A stretch of DNA of 37,129 nt, from positions 1-37,129 of IMG/VR virus record IMGVR_UViG_2872174743_000010; one strand, given 5' to 3'. The position numbers were made by a program, and so were the translations under genes. The notes under the pieces were generated by a model. That model worked only from the letters and a program-made list of their open reading frames with translations, was not told where the DNA came from and searched no databases. Origin of the DNA: a virus. Taxonomy: Duplodnaviria > Heunggongvirae > Uroviricota > Caudoviricetes. Below are positions 2,022 to 34,509 of this stretch, piece by piece (position 1 is the first letter of the stretch; the number at the start of each line of letters is the position of its first letter).

Positions 2022-2204
2022 TCCATTTATTGGATTAATTCAATATTCTCGCTGTAGAGGTATAGCCGAGGCCACCAAAGCCCGGAGGTGGTGAAATAAA
2101 ACCGGGCACAACACGAAGGCGCATTTCCGGTATTCATAAAGAGTCGGTCTTGTCTGTGAAATTTAAATGGTGGGAGTGCGCTTCCGGTTGTAAATAACGA
2201 CATT

Positions 2205-2264
2205 GCTGTGTGAAGTACCAGTTGGCGGCATCGGTTTAATTGCTGGCTGATGTCCGCCCTTTTT
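2205..2264 (+). ncRNA. dicF: DicF-like sRNA candidate ending in an intrinsic terminator
   Basis: ...AGTTGGCGGCATCGGTTTAATTGCTGGCTGATGTCCGCCC followed by TTTTT; the stem (GGCGG..CCGCCC) and T-run sit where DicF sits in Qin and align with the 3' two thirds of DicF as remembered. The 5' region differs. Confidence 0.4.
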
Positions 2265-2737: not shown

Positions 2738-3283
2738 ATGGCTACTACCCTTTCTCACCCTGACGTAACCATCGAAAATGGTCGCGCCGTCACTACTTCT
2801 ATTTCGATTGCTGAGTTTTTTGGCAAGCAGCATCACCATGTTGTTCAAAAAATAGAATCCCTCGAATGTTCTGAACTATTTTTAACCAGCAACTTTTCGC
2901 GGGTTAAATTCGAACACCGCGGCAATTCTTATAACGCCTACCAAATCACCAAAAACGGCTTCGTTTTCCTGGTGATGGGCTTCACGGGCAAAAAAGCCGC
3001 CACATTCAAGGAAGCCTACATTGCTGAGTTCGACCGCATGGAGGCCGAACTGCGCCAGAATAACACCCCACCTGCTGACAAGATGATTCCGGGTGATGGT
3101 CGCACTCTGGTTGTTCACTTCGACAAATTCGGCAATGTCGAATTCACCGAAACCGTTCCTGATGGCGCACTGGTCTGTACCCTGGAGACTTTCCGGTTTT
3201 ATCTGGAAAAACAGGGCTGGACTCTTGTAAACCGGGGCGCAATTAAAAACATGACCGTAGAGCAGTTGCTTTCCTTAAAATAA
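2738..3283 (+). CDS. Rha-family phage regulatory protein
   Basis: From the Met at 2738 (GAGGA upstream): MATTLSHPDVTIENGRAVTTSISIAEFFGKQHHHVVQKIESL...NAYQITKNGFVFLVMGFTGKKAA, the conserved Rha N-terminal domain. Confidence 0.8.
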   Translation: MATTLSHPDVTIENGRAVTTSISIAEFFGKQHHHVVQKIESLECSELFLTSNFSRVKFEHRGNSYNAYQITKNGFVFLVMGFTGKKAATFKEAYIAEFDRMEAELRQNNTPPADKMIPGDGRTLVVHFDKFGNVEFTETVPDGALVCTLETFRFYLEKQGWTLVNRGAIKNMTVEQLLSLK

Positions 3284-3406
3284 AAATGGAGCTATGGATA
3301 TGAACCCCATGCTTGATTATTGTTTTACACCTGCCCTCAGGCTGAGGTAGCCTGAGTTTAACGGACACTCCTTCCTGAAATAGAATGGCATCAGAAGGAG
3401 CTAATA

Positions 3407-3680
3407 ATGAGCAGAAAAAACCAACGTTACTCTAAAGAGTTCAAAGCCGAAGCTGTCAGAACGGTTCTTGAAAATCAACTTTCGATCAGTGAAGGCGCTT
3501 CCCGATTATCCCTTCCTGAAGGCACTTTAGGACAATGGGTTACCGCCGCCAGAAAAGGGCTCGGTACTCCTGGTTCCCGCACGGTGGCTGAACTGGAATC
3601 TGAAATTCTGCAACTGCGTAAGGCGTTAAATGAAGCTCGCCTTGAGCGATATATATTAAAAAAAGCAACAGCGTATTTTG
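3407..3680 (+). pseudogene. IS600 OrfA, truncated at the IS66-family insertion point
   Basis: MSRKNQRYSKEFKAEAVRTVLENQLSISEGASRLSLPEGTLGQWV...ILKKATAYF; contains the A-rich slippery run TTAAAAAAAG; reading continues into the IS66 inverted repeat (GTAAGCG at 3681). Confidence 0.8.
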
Positions 3681-3766
3681 GTAAGCGTAAACTGACCGCC
3701 GTATGTAGCCATTAAGCCTGTATTGGTAACGTAGGTGCCCACCTTTTCAACTAGTGGACACCTGTT

Positions 3767-4186
3767 ATGGAACAGAAAGCATTATCTGCAGAACCCCGCA
3801 GATCATTTTCAAATGAGTTTAAACTTCAAATGGTTAAACTGGCTTCACAACCAGGAGCCTCTGTTGCCCGTATTGTCCGGGAACACGATATCAATGATAA
3901 CCTGCTGTTCAAATGGCTCAGGCTCTGGCAGAACGAAGGGCGCATATCGCGGCGTCTTCCGGTAACAACCTCTTCTGACACTGGCGTTGAATTATTACCT
4001 GTGGAGATAACGCCGGATGAGCCGAAAGAACCGGTGGCTGCTCTTACTCCGTCTTTATCTACTCAGACTACAGTTAGTGCCAGCTCCTGCAAGGTGGAGT
4101 TCCGTCACGGTAACATGACGCTGGAAAATCCTTCACCAGAGCTGCTCACAGTGTTGATCCGTGAACTGACCGGGTGGGGACGATAA
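3767..4186 (+). CDS. tnpA: IS66-family accessory protein TnpA
   Basis: 139 aa with ...FSNEFKLQMVKLASQPGASVARIVREHDINDNLLFKWLR..., the IS66 orf1 pattern; stop overlaps the next gene. Confidence 0.85.
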   Translation: MEQKALSAEPRRSFSNEFKLQMVKLASQPGASVARIVREHDINDNLLFKWLRLWQNEGRISRRLPVTTSSDTGVELLPVEITPDEPKEPVAALTPSLSTQTTVSASSCKVEFRHGNMTLENPSPELLTVLIRELTGWGR

Positions 4187-4533
4187 TCTCACTCCCGTCA
4201 GGCACCCGCATCTGGCTCGTTGCTGGGATAACCGATATGCGTAAGTCTTTCAACGGGCTGGGTGAACAGGTACAGCATGTGCTGAATGATAATCCCTTCT
4301 CCGGTCACCTGTTCATCTTCCGTGGCCGACGGGGTGACATGATTAAAATCCTGTGGGCTGATGCTGATGGTCTGTGCCTGTTCACCAGACGCCTGGAGGA
4401 AGGCCAGTTTATCTGGCCTGCTGTGCGTGACGGCAAGGTATCCATTACCCGCTCGCAACTGGCAATGCTCCTCGATAAGCTGGACTGGCGTCAGCCAAAA
4501 ACATCCCGCCTTAACGCACTGACAATGTTGTAA
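4174..4533 (+). CDS. tnpB: IS66-family TnpB (orf2)
   Basis: GTG start overlapping the tnpA end; ...GTRIWLVAGITDMRKSFNGLGEQV...GHLFIFRGRRGDMIKILWADADGLCLFTRRLEEGQFIWP. Confidence 0.85.
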   Translation: MGTIISLPSGTRIWLVAGITDMRKSFNGLGEQVQHVLNDNPFSGHLFIFRGRRGDMIKILWADADGLCLFTRRLEEGQFIWPAVRDGKVSITRSQLAMLLDKLDWRQPKTSRLNALTML

Positions 4534-4563
4534 AAATGTCATGGCCGGATTATAAAAACGGCC

Positions 4564-6156
4564 ATGAATCAAAAATACCTCATTCGCATTGCAGAACTGG
4601 AATGCCAGCTCCGTCAGAAAGACCAGCAACTGAGTCTGGTTGAAGAGACGGAGGCCTTCCTGCGCTCTGCACTGGCCCGCGCCGAAGAAAAGATCGAAGA
4701 AGATGAACGGGAAATAGAACATCTGCGGGCTCAGATAGAAAAACTGCGCCGGATGCTGTTCGGTACCCGTTCTGAAAAACTGCGTCGTGAAGTTGAACAG
4801 GCTGAGGCCCTGCTGAAACAACGCGAACAGGACAGTGATCGTTACAGTGGGCGGGAAGACGATCCGCAGGTTCCCCGCCAGTTGCGACAGTCTCGTCATC
4901 GTCGCCCGTTACCGGAGCATCTGCCCCGCGAAATAAATCGCCTGGAGCCAGAAGAAAGCTGTTGCCCGGAGTGTGGCGGTGAGCTGGATTATCTGGGGGA
5001 AGTCAGCGCAGAACAACTGGAACTGGTGAGCAGCGCTCTGAAAGTGATCCGCACAGAACGGGTAAAAAAAGCCTGTACAAAATGTGACTGCATCGTTGAA
5101 GCACCGGCACCATCCCGTCCGATAGAGCGTGGTATCGCGGGCCCGGGGTTACTTGCCCGCGTGTTAACGGGAAAATACTGCGAACACCTGCCACTGTATC
5201 GTCAGAGTGAAATTTTTGCCCGTCAGGGTGTCGAACTGAGCCGTGCATTACTCTCCAACTGGGTTGACGCGTGCTGCCAGTTAATGACGCCGCTGAATGA
5301 TGCTCTGTACCGTTATGTGATGAACAGCCGCAAAGTTCACACTGATGACACACCAGTAAAAGTGCTGGCACCGGGCAGGAAGAAGGCGAAAACAGGATAT
5401 ATCTGGACGTATGTCCGGGATGACAGGAATGCCGGTTCGCCAGAGCCTCCGGCGGTCTGGTTCGCCTACTCACCGGACCATCAGGGTAAACATCCGGAGC
5501 AGCACCTTAGTCCCTTCCGGGGTATCCTGCAGGCAGATGCGTTTAATGGTTACGATCGGCTGTTCAGTGCCGAACGAGAAGGCGGCGCGTTGACGGAAGC
5601 AGGATGCTGGGCTCATGCGCGGCGCAAAGTCCACGATGTATATATCAGTACCAAAAGCGCGACAGCGGAAGAAGCCCTGAAACTAATCGGTGAGCTGTAC
5701 GCCATCGAGCACGAAATACGCGGGTTGCCGGTGTCTGAACGCCTGGCGGTCAGGCAAATGCAGAGTAAACCGCTACTGACTTCCCTGTATAAGCTGATGC
5801 AGGAGAAAGAACAGACGTTATCGAAAAAATGCCGTCTGAGAGATGCGTTCCGGTATATCAGGAAGCACTGGGTTGCGTTGTGCAACTTCAGTGATGATGG
5901 TCTGGCTGAGGCGGATAATAATGCCGCGGAAAGAGCGCTTCGTGCAGTCTGTCTCGGAAAGAAAAACTTTATGTTCTTCGGCAGCGATCACGGTGGAGAG
6001 CGTGGTGCGCTACTGTACGGGCTGATCGGCACCTGCCGACTGAACGGTATCGATCCGGAAGCGTATCTGCGCTATATCCTGAGCGTACTGCCGGAATGGC
6101 CTTCCAACCGTGTTGACGAACTCCTGCCATGGAACGTAGCACTCACCAATAAATAA
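4564..6156 (+). CDS. tnpC: IS66-family transposase TnpC
   Basis: 530 aa; coiled-coil N-terminus, CCPECGG zinc motif, DDTPVKVL, WAHARRK, ADNNAAERALR and [15 protein letters not shown] motifs, all characteristic of IS66 transposases. Confidence 0.9.
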   Translation: MNQKYLIRIAELECQLRQKDQQLSLVEETEAFLRSALARAEEKIEEDEREIEHLRAQIEKLRRMLFGTRSEKLRREVEQAEALLKQREQDSDRYSGREDDPQVPRQLRQSRHRRPLPEHLPREINRLEPEESCCPECGGELDYLGEVSAEQLELVSSALKVIRTERVKKACTKCDCIVEAPAPSRPIERGIAGPGLLARVLTGKYCEHLPLYRQSEIFARQGVELSRALLSNWVDACCQLMTPLNDALYRYVMNSRKVHTDDTPVKVLAPGRKKAKTGYIWTYVRDDRNAGSPEPPAVWFAYSPDHQGKHPEQHLSPFRGILQADAFNGYDRLFSAEREGGALTEAGCWAHARRKVHDVYISTKSATAEEALKLIGELYAIEHEIRGLPVSERLAVRQMQSKPLLTSLYKLMQEKEQTLSKKCRLRDAFRYIRKHWVALCNFSDDGLAEADNNAAERALRAVCLGKKNFMFFGSDHGGERGALLYGLIGTCRLNGIDPEAYLRYILSVLPEWPSNRVDELLPWNVALTNK

Positions 6157-6249
6157 GCGTCAATACGGTGCTCCGTTGACGCCTGATATGACTTTCCGTG
6201 TCAAACCGGAATCTCTAATTTTGACGATTTTCTTTTTAGGTTTAATTCC

Positions 6250-6435
6250 CTGAGGGCGACGTAGCAGTAAATCCGACGGTGAATCACGCTGATATTCGCG
6301 GGTTGGATACCGCATTACAGAGGTCCGTCATATGAGCCTGCCACTTTCTTACGTCGCGAATCAGCTTTGTTCCGCCGTCGCCAAGCGCTAACGTGGGTTA
6401 CTCTTGTACCGGGCTACGTCGCCTTCAGGGAACTG
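6250..6435 (-). ncRNA. Candidate structured non-coding RNA (bridge-RNA-like) in the IS110-family non-coding end
   Basis: Non-coding stretch just downstream of the transposase stop with nested complementarity: CCCTGAGGGCGACGTAGC (about 6248-6265) pairs 17 of 18 with GCTACGTCGCCTTCAGGG (about 6413-6430); GCTGATATTCGCG (about 6288-6300) pairs with CGCGAATCAGC (about 6355-6365); repeated TACGTCGC motifs. Strand and ends are inferred, not shown. Confidence 0.3.
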
Positions 6436-6449
6436 GTTATTCTCATTTT

Positions 6450-7577
6450 TTATTTGTGACATTGTGGTTGTTGTGCGACAGACATTGCTATTCGGCCCAT
6501 ATCCCAGATAAAACCCGCCAGCTCACGTGCAACAGCAACAATTGTAATATTGACATTCTTTCCTTTGGCCTGAAGTTTTCGATACCTCTTACAGAGCCTG
6601 AGTTGAGCATCCCATGCTCTGTCAATGACGGGGCGGGGTAAATTTTCCTGCCTTTTTTGTATTGCCGGACTGATGCGTGCCGGATGACGGTAACTCCACG
6701 CTGCCTCGACCAATAGCTTTCTGGCATAGCTGTTTCCGGCTTTGGTAATGCTGCCCTGATGTCTGCTTCCACCCGATGAATATTCTGATGGCGTGATACC
6801 AAACCATGACATCAGTTGTCGTGGATGTTCAAAACGGGTCAGATCACCCAGTTCAGAAATTAATCCAACCGCAGTAATAAACTGAATCCCTCGCATGGCT
6901 TGCAGCGCCTCTACTACCGGATACAGCCTCCATTCGGTAACGGCCTCCTTCAGGGCGGATTCCAGCCGTTCACATTGTGCCTGCCGGTCTTCTATTGTAC
7001 GACGGTGTTCGTCAAAAGCTAATTGTCGCCAGGGACTTTCGAATGAGTATTTGCTGAGCCAGCGTCGGTGTGCAGGGCCCCAATCTGCTCGCCCGACATA
7101 ATGGACCCCATGAACCAGAAGAAACGATTTCAGACGTTGCCTTGCATGCCGTAAATCATCGCGGGCAGATGCCCATGCCCGGGCCAAATCCCGGAATGCC
7201 TCATCTTCAATGCCGGGTACGTAGACAGCAGAAAGATCTCCTGCACGCAGTGAACGCACAAGTCTGATGGCATCACGGCGATCGGTTTTAACCCGCTCCC
7301 CCGGTTTTTTCGGGATAAGTGAGGGGGCGCAGACCATGCAGTCAAAACCGGATTTCACCAGCCGACGATAAAGTCCATAACCACAGGGCCCCGCTTCATA
7401 AACGATACTGACCTGCGATGACTTTGACCTGAGACGTTTACAAAGATTCTGAATATCAGTAGGTGATGTGCCAATTTTACCCATCAGTTCAACAGGTTCT
7501 GAATTGATAGCATAAGCGACAGTAATCGATTCTTTGTGAACATCTAACCCGACGTACAATGTGTTATTGTTGTTCAT
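6450..7577 (-). CDS. IS110-family transposase/recombinase (DEDD type)
   Basis: Start at the Met of MNNNNTLYVGLDVHKESITVAYA (GGAGG-like RBS upstream); N-terminal RuvC-like DEDD region and C-terminal ...GSITKAGNSYARKLLVEAAW... serine-bearing domain typical of IS110/IS1111 transposases. Confidence 0.85.
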   Translation of the reverse strand: MNNNNTLYVGLDVHKESITVAYAINSEPVELMGKIGTSPTDIQNLCKRLRSKSSQVSIVYEAGPCGYGLYRRLVKSGFDCMVCAPSLIPKKPGERVKTDRRDAIRLVRSLRAGDLSAVYVPGIEDEAFRDLARAWASARDDLRHARQRLKSFLLVHGVHYVGRADWGPAHRRWLSKYSFESPWRQLAFDEHRRTIEDRQAQCERLESALKEAVTEWRLYPVVEALQAMRGIQFITAVGLISELGDLTRFEHPRQLMSWFGITPSEYSSGGSRHQGSITKAGNSYARKLLVEAAWSYRHPARISPAIQKRQENLPRPVIDRAWDAQLRLCKRYRKLQAKGKNVNITIVAVARELAGFIWDMGRIAMSVAQQPQCHK

Positions 7578-7779
7578 GCTGGCCTCCGTGGTGGAAATAC
7601 CGGGGGGTAGCAACAGCTCACCCATGCGGCTCTGACAACGATGTTAACCCGCGTTAAATATCCCACGTTGGCCAGCATCTGTCTCACGGAAAGTCATACT
7701 GCCTTACGTATTTTGCACAGGAGTCGCTGATAAATACGCGTTAATCGAACAATGGCGACAACAATTTCCCATTGAAGCG

Positions 7780-8598
7780 ATGTGTCAGGTATTTGGTGTA
7801 TCCAGGAGCGGTTATTACAACTGGGTACAGCATGAACCCTCAGACAGAAAACAAAGTGATGAGCGGCTAAAACTGGAGATTAAGGTGGCACATATCCGCA
7901 CTCGCGAAACATATGGAACCCGGCGGCTCCAGACGGAGCTGGCAGAGAATGGCATCATCGTTGGTCGTGACCGACTGGCACGTCTTCGTAAGGAGCTAAG
8001 GCTACGCTGTAAGCAGAAACGCAAGTTCAGAGCGACTACGAACCCGAACCACAATCTGCCAGTTGCGCCAAATCTGCTGAACCAGACGTTCGCTCCTACA
8101 GCACCAAATCAGGTCTGGGTGGCGGACCTGACGTATGTTGCCACACAGGAGGGATGGTTGTACCTCGCTGGCATCAAAGATGTTTATACGTGCGAAATTG
8201 TCGGCTACGCCATGGGAGAGCGCATGACAAAAGAGCTGACAGGTAAAGCCCTGTTTATGGCGCTCAGGAGCCAGCGCCCACCTGCCGGGTTAATCCACCA
8301 CTCTGATCGAGGTTCACAGTACTGCGCATACGATTACCGGGTCATACAGGAGCAGTCTGGTCTGAAAACATCAATGTCGCGTAAAGGTAACTGTTACGAC
8401 AACGCTCCGATGGAAAGCTTCTGGGGAACGCTGAAAAATGAGAGCCTGAGCCACTATCGTTTTAATAACCGGGATGAAGCCATCTCAGTAATACGGGAAT
8501 ACATTGAGATTTTCTACAATCGTCAGCGTCGTCACTCTCGTCTGGGGAATATCTCCCCGGCAGCCTTCAGGGAAAAATATCATCAGATGGCTGCTTAA
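7780..8598 (+). CDS. IS600 OrfB (DDE catalytic part)
   Basis: MCQVFGVSRSGYYNWV...VWVADLTYV...HHSDRGSQYCA...NCYDNAPMESFWGTLKNE..., the IS3-family integrase core; the orfB frame is open upstream from about 7648, as expected for an OrfAB fusion. Confidence 0.85.
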   Translation: MCQVFGVSRSGYYNWVQHEPSDRKQSDERLKLEIKVAHIRTRETYGTRRLQTELAENGIIVGRDRLARLRKELRLRCKQKRKFRATTNPNHNLPVAPNLLNQTFAPTAPNQVWVADLTYVATQEGWLYLAGIKDVYTCEIVGYAMGERMTKELTGKALFMALRSQRPPAGLIHHSDRGSQYCAYDYRVIQEQSGLKTSMSRKGNCYDNAPMESFWGTLKNESLSHYRFNNRDEAISVIREYIEIFYNRQRRHSRLGNISPAAFREKYHQMAA

Positions 8599-8977
8599 AA
8601 AAAGAACAAATGGTAGTGTCCGCTATTGCCAGTACACCTCAGGCAGACCATCAGTCATACCGGGATTAAAAAATGGCTGTGGAGAATCAGAAAAATTCTC
8701 CAGCAAAAAGGTGACCCGGATTTAATACAATGTGATTACCATCTCTGCAATAAACAGTTTTTACCTGAAAAAGCTTTTACTGGCGAGCTTATTTATATGC
8801 ATGGAAACATGATTGCCAGAAAGAAACGAAAATATTGCGGTGCAGCTTGTGCCGAAAAAGACAAGATGGCACACGAACTTTAATTAACTGAATATTCGAA
8901 ACTGAATTTATGCCAGCAATGGGGTAATGCTGCCAACTTACTGATTTAGTGTATGATGGTGATTTTAAGGTGCTTGC

Positions 8978-9253
8978 GTGGCTTCCATTTCCATCAGATG
9001 TCCTTCCTGCTCCGCTACTGAAGGCGTGGTGCGTAACGGCAAAAGCACTGCCGGACATCAGCGCTATCTCTGCTCTCATTGCCGTAAAACATGGCAACTA
9101 CAGTTCACTTACACCGCCTCTCAGCCCGGTACGCACCAGAAAATCATTGATATGGCCATGAATGGCGTCGGATGTCGCGCCAGTGCACGCATTATGGGCG
9201 TTGACCTCAACACGGTTTTCCGTCACTTAAAAAACTCAGGCCGCAGTCGGTAA
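8978..9253 (+). CDS. insA: IS1 InsA
   Basis: [43 protein letters not shown]... Confidence 0.9.
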
Positions 9254-9279
9254 CCTCGCGCATACAACCGGGCAGTGAT

Positions 9280-9571
9280 GTGATTGTCTGCGCTGAAATG
9301 GACGAACAGTGGGGCTACGTCGGTGCTAAATCACGTCAGCGCTGGCTGTTTTACGCGTATGACAGGATACGGAGGACGGTTGTGGCGCACGTCTTCGGTG
9401 AACGCACTCTGGCCACACTGGAGCGTCTTCTGAGCCTGCTGTCGGCCTTTGAGGTCGTGGTATGGATGACGGATGGCTGGCCGCTGTATGAATCACGCCT
9501 GAAGGGAAAGCTGCACGTTATCAGCAAGCGTTACACTCAGCGCATTGAGCGACATAATCTGAATCTGAGAC
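9280..9571 (+). pseudogene. insB: IS1 InsB, 3'-truncated by the IS66-family insertion
   Basis: InsB frame reads ...[14 protein letters not shown] and then continues into IS66 DNA (RKRTA, stop), whereas the intact copy at 25340-25843 continues [13 protein letters not shown]... Confidence 0.75.
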
Positions 9572-9642
9572 GTAAGCGTACAGCCTGAACCGTCTGGTCA
9601 GAATCTGACGAATTAGACAAAGTGGTGTCCACCAAATAAGTA

Positions 9643-24701: not shown

Positions 24702-25095
24702 ATTGCAGAAGGTGGACGACTGGCTGAGTGCATTATTGGCGAATCTGGAGCCAGCCGCAAGAAGCCGCATGATGCGCCAGCTGGCGCAGGAACTGCGCCG
24801 GACACAGCAGCAGAACATCAGGATGCAGCGCAATCCAGATGGCAGCAGTTATGAGCCGCGCAGGGTAACAGCACGCAGCAAAAAGGGGCGCATCAAACGT
24901 CAGATGTTTACAAAGCTGCGCACCACAAAATACCTGAAAACTGCAGCCAGCGCCGATTCTGCCAGCGTACAGTTTGAAGGTAGGGTGCAGCGCATTGCCC
25001 GTATTCACCATTACGGCTTGAGTGATCGCGTCAGTCGAAAAGGTATTTATACCATCTATGCGAAAAGGCAGTTATTAGGTTTTAATGTCCGGTAA
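24694..25095 (+). pseudogene. S: Tail completion protein S (P2 gpS-like), C-terminus cut by IS1
   Basis: 133 aa frame runs into the IS1 left end (stop supplied by GGTAATGC); P2 gpS is longer as remembered. Confidence 0.65.
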
Positions 25096-25145
25096 TGCTG
25101 CCAACTTACTGATTTAGTGTATGATGGTGATTTTAAGGTGCTTGC

Positions 25146-25421
25146 GTGGCTTCCATTTCCATCAGATGTCCTTCCTGCTCCGCTATTGAAGGCGTGGTGC
25201 GTAACGGCAAAAGCACTGCCGGACATCAGCGCTATCTCTGCTCTCATTGCCGTAAAACATGGCAACTACAGTTCACTTACACCGCCTCTCAGCCCGGTAC
25301 GCACCAGAAAATCATTGATATGGCCATGAATGGCGTCGGATGTCGCGCCAGTGCACGCATTATGGGCGTTGGCCTCAACACGGTTTTACGTCACTTAAAA
25401 AACTCAGGCCGCAGTCGGTAA
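25146..25421 (+). CDS. insA: IS1 InsA
   Basis: [43 protein letters not shown]... Confidence 0.9.
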
Positions 25422-25843
25422 CCTCGCGCATACAACCGGGCAGTGATGTGATTGTCTGCGCTGAAATGGACGAACAGTGGGGCTACGTCGGTGCTAAATC
25501 ACGTCAGCGCTGGCTGTTTTACGCGTATGACAGGATACGGAGGACGGTTGTGGCGCACGTCTTCGGTGAACGCACTCTGGCCACACTGGAGCGTCTTCTG
25601 AGCCTGCTGTCGGCCTTTGAGGTCGTGGTATGGATGACGGATGGCTGGCCGCTGTATGAATCACGCCTGAAGGGAAAGCTGCACGTTATCAGCAAGCGTT
25701 ACACTCAGCGCATTGAGCGACATAATCTGAATCTGAGACAACATCTGGCAAGGCTGGGACGGAAGTCACTGTCGTTCTCAAAATCGGTGGAGCTGCATGA
25801 CAAGGTCATCGGGCATTATCTGAACATAAAACACTATCAGTAA
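25340..25843 (+). CDS. insB: IS1 InsB frame (expressed as InsAB' by frameshifting)
   Basis: ...[45 protein letters not shown]...HYLNIKHYQ; full-length, unlike the copy at 9280. Confidence 0.85.
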
Positions 25844-25858
25844 GTTGGCAGCATTACC

Positions 25859-34350: not shown

Positions 34351-34397
34351 CAACAAAAAACCCATCAACCTTGAACCGAAATGGCGGGGTTGATGGG
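34351..34397 (-). terminator. Intrinsic terminator candidate on the minus strand (downstream of ybjL)
   Basis: CCCATCAACC ... GGTTGATGGG stem with a 17-nt loop; on the minus strand it is followed by TTTTTTGTTG. Confidence 0.45.
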
Positions 34398-34509
34398 CTC
34401 CACAAAATGGGGACATCAAAGAAAAGCAGTGGCACTAATTAAGACTGATGCCCTGCGGAAAAGTTCTGCGGTTGTGCAAAAAAATTTCATTTTCAGGGCA
34501 ACTTCAGTT

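Follow-up and report, generated by a model that had tools for sequence, protein, structure and literature searches.

The slot and its surroundings

The window, by which we mean the whole 37,129-nucleotide stretch of viral DNA that was analysed, carries near its left end a DicA-like repressor gene of the HTH_3/CI type (1259-1666, + strand; Pfam HTH_3, 7.8e-14) followed by a DUF1391, YdfA-like gene (1869-2021, + strand; Pfam DUF1391, 7.9e-30), while a DicC/P22-Cro-like gene (950-1183, - strand) and a YdaT-family gene lie on the strand opposite to the repressor. The DicC/P22-Cro-like gene contains a 1-nt insertion (AAAGCATTGCC, as against AAAGCTTGCC in four related loci) that shifts the frame after codon 15 relative to K-12 dicC and those four loci; the gene is likely a pseudogene, or else the insertion is a sequencing error. 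The cro-like genes of loci L001 and L147 belong to a different gene family and comparison with them is uninformative. Downstream of the DUF1391 gene come the element considered here (2170-2264, + strand), a conserved leader (2266-2420, + strand) and then isrK (63.8 bits) and C4 antisense RNA (78.6 bits) within 2494-2683, directly upstream of a Rha-family regulator gene (2738-3283; Phage_pRha, E 2.9e-26). The isrK-C4-Rha trio resembles the P1 c4-ant or Gifsy-1 isrK-type module and follows the sRNA in other loci as well (L001, L008, L027, L073 and L111).

About 140 nt 3' of the Rha gene an IS cluster begins (~3400-9600), comprising an IS3-type orfA fragment (3407-3715), IS66-family genes (3767-6156) and others, and because these elements cut off the rest of the early-left operon neither kilR nor recE is present in the window. 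The repeats at 7707-8641, 8918-9571 and 25091-25858 have counterparts in IS copies of other loci. With its frameshifted cro/dicC-like gene and IS-truncated operon the prophage remnant is decaying. A P2-like prophage (~10000-34000, with late control D and ogr-type genes) adjoins rybB (34352-34430, - strand; Rfam, 105 bits) and ybjL/ybjM/grxA, so that the window holds two unrelated prophage elements, this one and the remnant with the DicF slot. The chromosomal end (ybjL-ybjM-grxA, rybB) is 99.7% identical to E. coli, and contig L086 matches the left part of the window at about 99.6%, with IS-associated rearrangements; the host belongs to the E. coli/Shigella type.

The element itself is 95 nt long, as delimited by alignment with the 98-nt sRNA KilS of K-12 (b4833), and all of its features lie on the + strand. 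In the MFE fold of 2170-2264 (-32.5 kcal/mol, z -2.07) two 5' stem-loops (2171-2186 and 2187-2201) are followed by a single-stranded seed/linker (2202-2223), assigned from alignments to RprA and KilS and from predicted pairing with yncL and csgD, and then by a terminator hairpin and U-tail. The intrinsic terminator is of the DicF type, a GC-rich 13-bp hairpin (2224-2259) with T5 at 2260-2264; it is strong (-20.3 kcal/mol, hairpin plus T5) and was also picked by the terminator scan and by alignment to the Rfam DicF model. In terms of letters GTGTGAAGTACCAG occupies 2208-2221 and TTGGCGGCATCGGTTTAATTGCTGGCTGATGTCCGCCC 2222-2259, with T5 directly 3'. The seed, AUUGCUGUGUG (2202-2212), has the same letters as RprA nt 60-70 and KilS; 3' of it come a U-to-A change at 2213 and, at about 2217-2220, four inserted nucleotides typical of the window type. 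The seed could be masked by a predicted self-hairpin, which is weak (about -3.5 kcal/mol). Across 16 variants 96% of cells in the stem are conserved and 2 pairs are altered on both sides; covariation gives the hairpin thin support, with 8 pairs comparable since the hairpin types differ in register.

A coding explanation was rejected, the + strand over the element having no ORF of at least 30 aa; the antisense 94-aa ORF (2027-2311) matched no Pfam family. A search inside the window for sites complementary to the window-specific linker or loop returned self-matches only. The motif GAGTGCGCTTCC(G/A)GTTGT, which is the first stem-loop of KilS-type RNAs (window 2172-2190; L005 about 3737-3757; L260 2459-2478), recurs ~130 nt 5' of K-12 DicF as well as in phage cassettes, that of mEp390 among them, and is a conserved element in the operon leader. 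The GAGTGCGCTTCCGGTTGT motif, from the region of the 5' stem-loop and RNase E site, is seen again in Qin, mEp390 and other loci.

Beyond the T-run lies a leader that hardly varies in any of the DicF/KilS loci; it contains a 22-bp long-range duplex (2266-2287 with 2398-2420) enclosing about 110 nt (MFE -60.8 kcal/mol, z -4.75), and has a partial, sub-threshold Rfam STnc100 match (30.7 bits vs 47). Judged from the predicted fold, the duplex is likely an RNase III site for read-through transcripts; in Qin, RNase III generates the 72-nt DicF 3' end (PMC5069750), and probably does so at this duplex.

Relation to KilS and DicF

In E. coli genomes, related DNA was found in prophages of the Rac type, where it lies in a gap without annotation ahead of kilR or a Rha-family gene; the homologous gap in K-12 Rac holds the annotated ncRNA kilS (b4833). 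In a six-way alignment the flanks of the window element match the K-12 Qin (dicF) and Rac (kilS) loci base for base, so that its homology to these loci is not due to chance. The same alignment establishes that ~170 nt of upstream sequence are common to the window and Rac and absent from Qin, and that the leader 3' of the T-run is almost invariant in all loci, with several versions of the hairpin preceding it. Identity between the window and K-12 KilS extends to 85 of 103 aligned columns (82.5%) and to 42 of 43 (97.7%) in the first 43 nt; the two RNAs have identical 3' stem arms, and in the window the linker is 4 nt longer and the loop 8 nt shorter. By alignment, 2170-2264 is a variant of KilS, an sRNA of the K-12 Rac prophage, and not a novel DicF derivative. 

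Both RNAs sit after a DUF1391 gene and have in common two 5' stem-loops, the RNase E site sequence, the UGCUGUGUG seed, the U-tail and the downstream leader. Besides the U-to-A change and insertion 3' of the seed and the shorter loop, the window differs from KilS by a T-to-G change at promoter position -12, by upstream immunity genes that are of the DicA/DicC type, with no sieB, rather than of the RacR/YdaS type, and by isrK-C4-Rha rather than kilR downstream. In place of the location typical of KilS, the sieB-kilR gap and kilR 5' UTR, we find here isrK, C4, the Rha-family gene and then IS elements; of the seven window-type copies whose flanks reach far enough, six have Rha downstream and one has kilR.

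KilS was predicted by RIL-seq and confirmed by northern blot as an RNA from the sieB-kilR intergenic region (Bar et al. 2021, PMC8175672). It is detected in wild type cells, is missing in an hfq deletion and builds up in stationary phase, and its sole reported partner in RIL-seq chimeras is yncL (PMC8175672); the TSS has been placed at 1418502, the 3' end at 1418405 and an internal RNase E site at 1418471 (PMC8175672, supplement file 6). Neither DicF nor RprA is mentioned in that study, which in the literature searched is the only one to name KilS. Since one of the two published northern probes (probe 2, AGGACTACACACAGCAATGTCGTTATTTAC; PMC8175672, supplement file 3) spans the RprA-like stretch described below, the evidence for KilS could be confounded in part by RprA. 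The two RNAs are close in size (106 nt for RprA, 98 nt for KilS) and cross-hybridisation of probe 2 is possible; probe 1, directed to the loop, should be specific.

The sequence at the KilS TSS and cleavage sites is conserved in the window, apart from the -12 substitution. A putative extended -10 (TGtGAAATT, 2155-2163, + strand) is assigned from its position relative to the TSS-equivalent G2170 and belongs to a KilS-type internal promoter, the region of which is nearly invariant in 36 copies; the -12 base is T in K-12 and G in the window, and most window-type copies carry the same change. From the K-12 TSS data we infer that such a promoter may be active here. The RNase E-equivalent site falls between 2200 and 2201 (+ strand), that is between ACGA and CAUUG, in surrounding sequence identical to that of K-12 KilS.

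The first-pass annotation had described the element as a DicF-like sRNA with a divergent 5' region, and a good part of that description is borne out. An sRNA gene does lie in the DicF slot and shares the DicF-type terminator scaffold, based in both cases on GGCGG/CCGCC. The proposed dicA-ydfA-dicF position agrees with the DicA-like repressor and DUF1391/YdfA gene upstream and with flanks that align with the Qin dicF locus: a GC-rich hairpin and U-run are found 3' of the DUF1391 gene and 5' of the RNase III leader, giving the same order as in Qin of repressor, DUF1391 gene, sRNA and conserved RNase III leader. The difference from DicF in the 5' part is also precisely the one described, UUUCUGGUGACG being replaced by CAUUGCUGUGUGAAGUACCAGU. 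What has to be corrected is the identity: the RNA is, by the alignments above, a KilS allele, and its divergent 5' region is not arbitrary but homologous to RprA, as set out below. DicF is processed from a ydfABC-dicF transcript (PMC5069750; bioRxiv 10.1101/2023.04.14.536235), and the biogenesis logic, a terminator plus RNase E processing, is probably the same for the window RNA.

A whole-window Rfam scan at curated thresholds found RybB, C4 and isrK and did not find DicF. In a permissive scan of 531 nt (1950-2480) the DicF model aligned at 2209-2259 with 28.6 bits and E 3e-4, a value that we estimate would become about 0.02 when scaled to the whole window. The terminator-proximal alignment with DicF that had been proposed is thus recovered from one end of the model to the other, but below the gathering score of 48. 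On the same model K-12 DicF scores 76.7 bits, an L001 hybrid 54.7, and K-12 KilS 39.1, which is also below threshold. The hairpin in the window is 74% identical to that of DicF, and nothing in the element corresponds to the 5' end of DicF.

In order to judge whether the element could nevertheless be a functional, diverged DicF orthologue that blocks division by pairing with the ftsZ ribosome-binding site, one must consider the regions through which DicF pairs. The 5' region had been taken as the pairing region of DicF; it is indeed divergent here, but DicF represses ftsZ by pairing its RBS with the loop ACUCCGU (with CGGAG) and with the 3' stem (PMC5069750). The window loop is UUUAAUUGCU, without CUCCG, so that the ACUCCGU anti-ftsZ motif is missing, and since the 5' seed UUUCUGGUGACG (xylR, pykA) is missing as well, both DicF pairing modules are absent and a different target set is expected. 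While RNAduplex-type pairing recovered the known DicF-ftsZ duplex, the best contact of the window RNA with the ftsZ initiation region amounts to -2.0 kcal/mol (z +0.9) through the U-tail and leaves the RBS uncovered, in a test of low power. Because the cofold test is insensitive even for DicF, the proven DicF-ftsZ pair itself giving z -0.4, the case against ftsZ pairing rests on the absent anti-SD motif. From the sequence, ftsZ, xylR and pykA are not expected to be targets. A DicF orthologue would account for the shared genomic slot, the full-length model alignment and the intermediate forms such as L001 that pass the DicF threshold, yet with a score so far short of gathering level and both pairing modules gone we regard it as very improbable.

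An RprA-like module and its predicted partners

RprA (Rfam RF00034) is an Rcs-controlled core sRNA of enterobacteria, while DicF (Rfam RF00039) belongs to the Qin prophage and, unlike the 5' module in the window, is itself without RprA similarity. A permissive Rfam scan of K-12 KilS gave a partial RprA match via AUUGCUGUGUGUAGUC (28.1 bits, E 0.36; gathering score 70), and since this match is insignificant alone the homology was tested by independent alignment. Aligned directly, K-12 rprA and KilS share an identical run of 16 nt and are similar from the 5' end of KilS on. In local alignments to K-12 RprA the KilS types score 25-28 (RprA 23-85) and the window 19 (RprA 23-74), against a shuffle null of about 8.5 +/- 1.5 (8.4 +/- 1.4 for the window) with a maximum of 16, so that the KilS score and the window score were each reached by 0 of 1000 shuffles; the score of DicF, 7, was reached by 963 of 1000. 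Between 1950 and 2480 of the window, RprA had no Rfam match up to E 10, the threshold being 70 bits. On the basis of these alignments the KilS-type 5' module is homologous to RprA and carries the validated RprA seed. In the literature searched, which took in few subscription journals, we found no report of a relationship between KilS and RprA or between KilS and DicF.

The RprA seed, nt 60-75 (AUUGCUGUGUGUAGUC), is kept at 16 of 16 positions in KilS and at the first 11 of 16 in the window, in each case directly 5' of the terminator. RprA resembles KilS and the window RNA in having AUUGCUGUGUG(UAGUC) as its seed, of which the window lacks the last part, in placing it immediately before a terminator with a processing site just 5' of it, in its partner yncL, which is reported for KilS and predicted for the window RNA, and in predicted pairing with csgD site Ib. 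By comparison with RprA the window RNA lacks the 5' hairpin (nt 1-32), keeps the rpoS-pairing stretch only in part, and has a different terminator, a different promoter and a prophage location; the sequence upstream of it is unrelated to the rprA promoter, and an RcsB-dependent promoter or a ydiK-ydiL locus is very unlikely, given that location. RprA60-105, termed a 'highly conserved region', is sufficient for csgD repression (PMC3465796), and pairing of RprA GCUG with csgD CAGC(-87..-90) was proven by means of compensatory mutations (PMC3465796). The KilS RNase E site, between ACGA and CAUUGCUG, coincides with the position that matches the 5' end of RprA60-105. Finally, yncL is one of the RprA targets that TRIC-seq and RIL-seq both recover (bioRxiv 10.1101/2025.09.11.675593).

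Pairing was gauged by the cofold ddG (duplex minus monomers) relative to 60 shuffled targets, a crude measure that was applied to K-12 targets rather than to those of the window's host; it replaced RNAduplex-type pairing, which neglects intramolecular structure, is noisy with large loops and was used qualitatively only. At the yncL stop/3'UTR site (GCACGCAGCA) values of -11.9 (z -4.8), -12.2 (z -4.5) and -13.0 (z -5.0) were obtained for RprA60-105, short KilS and the short window form, respectively, compared with -4.9 (z -0.3) for DicF. The corresponding values at csgD site Ib (ACUACACACAGCAG) are -10.8 (z -2.7), -12.8 (z -3.4; 0/60) and -8.1 (z -2.1; 4/60), with -4.1 (z +0.4) for DicF. RprA, KilS and the window RNA are thus predicted to pair at one yncL site and at RprA's csgD site, and DicF at neither. 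The window-specific ACCAGUU is predicted to add 7 bp with GGCUGGU of yncL, and the U-to-A change at 2213 to introduce one A.A mismatch against csgD and weaken that pairing. For the rpoS leader we obtained -23.2 with RprA, -8.6 with full-length KilS and -12.0 (z about -2.3) with the full-length window RNA; by the same measure the short KilS and window forms gave no significant pairing there.

Taken together, the homology, the structure and the complementarity above shuffled controls lead us to favour, with a probability of about 60%, a KilS variant made up of a DicF-type terminator and an RprA-homologous 5' seed part, pairing in trans with RprA-type targets. As the pairing region is copied from RprA, the window RNA probably acts on RprA targets and not on ftsZ. 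The steps of its biogenesis are drawn from K-12 KilS and DicF, and expression, processing, Hfq binding and regulation in the window strain would follow their pattern. Transcription would start at about G2170, from the internal promoter of the KilS type, or from a repressor-controlled early-left promoter upstream of ydfA, and a transcript reading in from the DicA-like/ydfA-like side could be processed into the sRNA. An intrinsic terminator hairpin with a U-tail is the usual Hfq-binding module, and termination at 2224-2264 would supply such a 3' end. Cleavage by RNase E at about 2200/2201 would leave a form of roughly 64 nt with AUUGCUGUGUG exposed at its 5' end, resembling processed RprA60-105, which with the help of Hfq may pair through its seed with RprA-type targets such as the yncL stop/3'UTR site and csgD site Ib; the full-length RNA might pair weakly with the rpoS leader. 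The T-to-G change at -12, the hairpin that may mask the seed, the decaying prophage and the csgD mismatch would argue against activity of this particular copy.

A seed identical to that of RprA might also be read as belonging to a decoy or competitor for RprA's targets, sponges or Hfq, one that shifts the host RprA regulon without repressing mRNAs. Prophage anti-sRNAs and mimics are known (AgvB, AsxR; PMC4104026), and StxS, an sRNA of a Shiga-toxin phage, acts at the rpoS leader site used by RprA, DsrA and ArcZ (PMC7547250). Like the RNA proposed here, StxS is a prophage sRNA arising by early termination and RNase E processing (PMC7547250), but its sequence is unrelated, its locus is PR'-tR' and it converges on the target site without RprA sequence. 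A decoy for RprA itself needs complementarity to RprA rather than identity, and identity with the RprA seed predicts shared targets, so that we give this reading very little credence.

Seed cassettes in temperate phages

When the invariant leader served as the anchor of a scan, matches came from at least 120 phage contigs and from 19 genome loci, which belong to Escherichia coli, E. albertii, E. ruysiae and Shigella flexneri. Among the matches listed, the 5' types within the 75 nt upstream of the anchor are those of DicF, KilS and the window along with CCAUGUUGAUUACC and CCAUGUGUAGUC. They occur joined to several types of hairpin, recombinants included: L001 joins a KilS 5' part to a DicF-like hairpin and lies above the DicF threshold, and by way of such intermediate forms the DicF and KilS families are connected. 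Mostly the DicF type is paired with dicB, the KilS type with kilR and the window type with Rha downstream, with exceptions. The exact allele of the window is rare, with 100% matches in 5 of 5,426 complete E. coli genomes and no feature annotated there, and it recurs nearly unchanged in 22 phage contigs (one polymorphic base) and in Shigella flexneri SFBU1023. In L006 (E. albertii) and L043 (a phage contig) a DicF-type 5' end UUUUCUGGUGAUUC precedes a hairpin that is very short (GGCGGAAACGGAUAUCCGCCC), giving a minimal scaffold; an Rfam sok antitoxin match lies nearby in L006 (250-425).

The 16-mer of the RprA seed occurs at no fewer than 120 loci in phage contigs, as opposed to 2 for the reversed-sequence control 16-mer. 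Among the matches listed, 127 occurrences represent 98 distinct contexts, and only five look like host rprA; in most of the listed contexts TT(T)G comes next to the seed, then a GC-rich hairpin of another sequence and a T-run, and a DicA/CI-type repressor gene lies within 2.5 kb of the seed in the majority. Cultured phages with such a seed cassette include Eeyore, Flotzy, LLS and mEp390, and related flanks occur in phages of Klebsiella, Salmonella, Shigella, Cronobacter and Citrobacter. The cassette of mEp390 and Eeyore follows the repressor gene on the same strand at a distance of 250-650 nt, which is the DicF/KilS slot. None of the records listed carries an RNA annotation at the seed cassette.

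Could the element act in cis only, as a tL-type terminator or attenuator limiting read-through into isrK/C4/Rha, with the RNA a by-product that is possibly not made at all? All family hairpins are strong terminators by folding, and hairpin and T-run are kept in every member while the loop and upstream sequence vary, as is the pattern for terminators; the element lies inside an operon leader, directly before the conserved RNase III-type duplex, in a decaying prophage and with an altered -12 promoter base. On the other hand, the K-12 homologue is a discrete, Hfq-dependent RNA with yncL chimeras (PMC8175672), complementarity to two RprA targets exceeds that of shuffled controls, and almost every KilS-type variant retains UGCUGUGUG, as do at least 120 phage cassettes whose flanks and terminators are otherwise unrelated, a conservation of the seed that terminator function fails to explain. 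A purely cis-acting element is on balance unlikely but a serious rival all the same, and a terminator role in cis is compatible with a role in trans.

Beyond the KilS variant with its RprA-type pairing, we put forward tentatively, and with somewhat less assurance, a more general reading in which the 'DicF slot' is a general sRNA cassette that combines a terminator scaffold with exchangeable seeds, the RprA-seed class (KilS, the window allele and cassettes such as those of mEp390, Eeyore, Flotzy and LLS) is widespread among them, and temperate phages of Enterobacteriaceae systematically tap the RprA regulon. Included in this tentative proposal is a common layout of lambdoid early-left operons, in which a CI-type repressor is followed by small ORFs, by the sRNA and its terminator and finally by early genes. 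The window allele would then be a re-tuned one, with one additional mismatch to csgD and 7 additional bp to yncL. Were the proposal correct, the part of the RprA regulon that is tapped would be csgD/curli, yncL and perhaps rpoS.

For annotation, the consequence is that the label be corrected from DicF to a KilS-family sRNA, for which filamentation via ftsZ is not expected. Three sRNAs that the literature searched treats separately are now linked, KilS appearing as an RprA-like seed module on a DicF-type scaffold, and cassettes with the RprA seed emerge as frequent among temperate phages of enterobacteria, where they share one conserved position. Provided that the seeds are active, csgD, and with it curli and biofilm control, would come under the influence of prophages independently of the Rcs signal, as would other RprA targets. 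This would offer a concrete mechanism for the effects of Rac on biofilm formation reported in PMC4632033, although the link to Rac is speculation.
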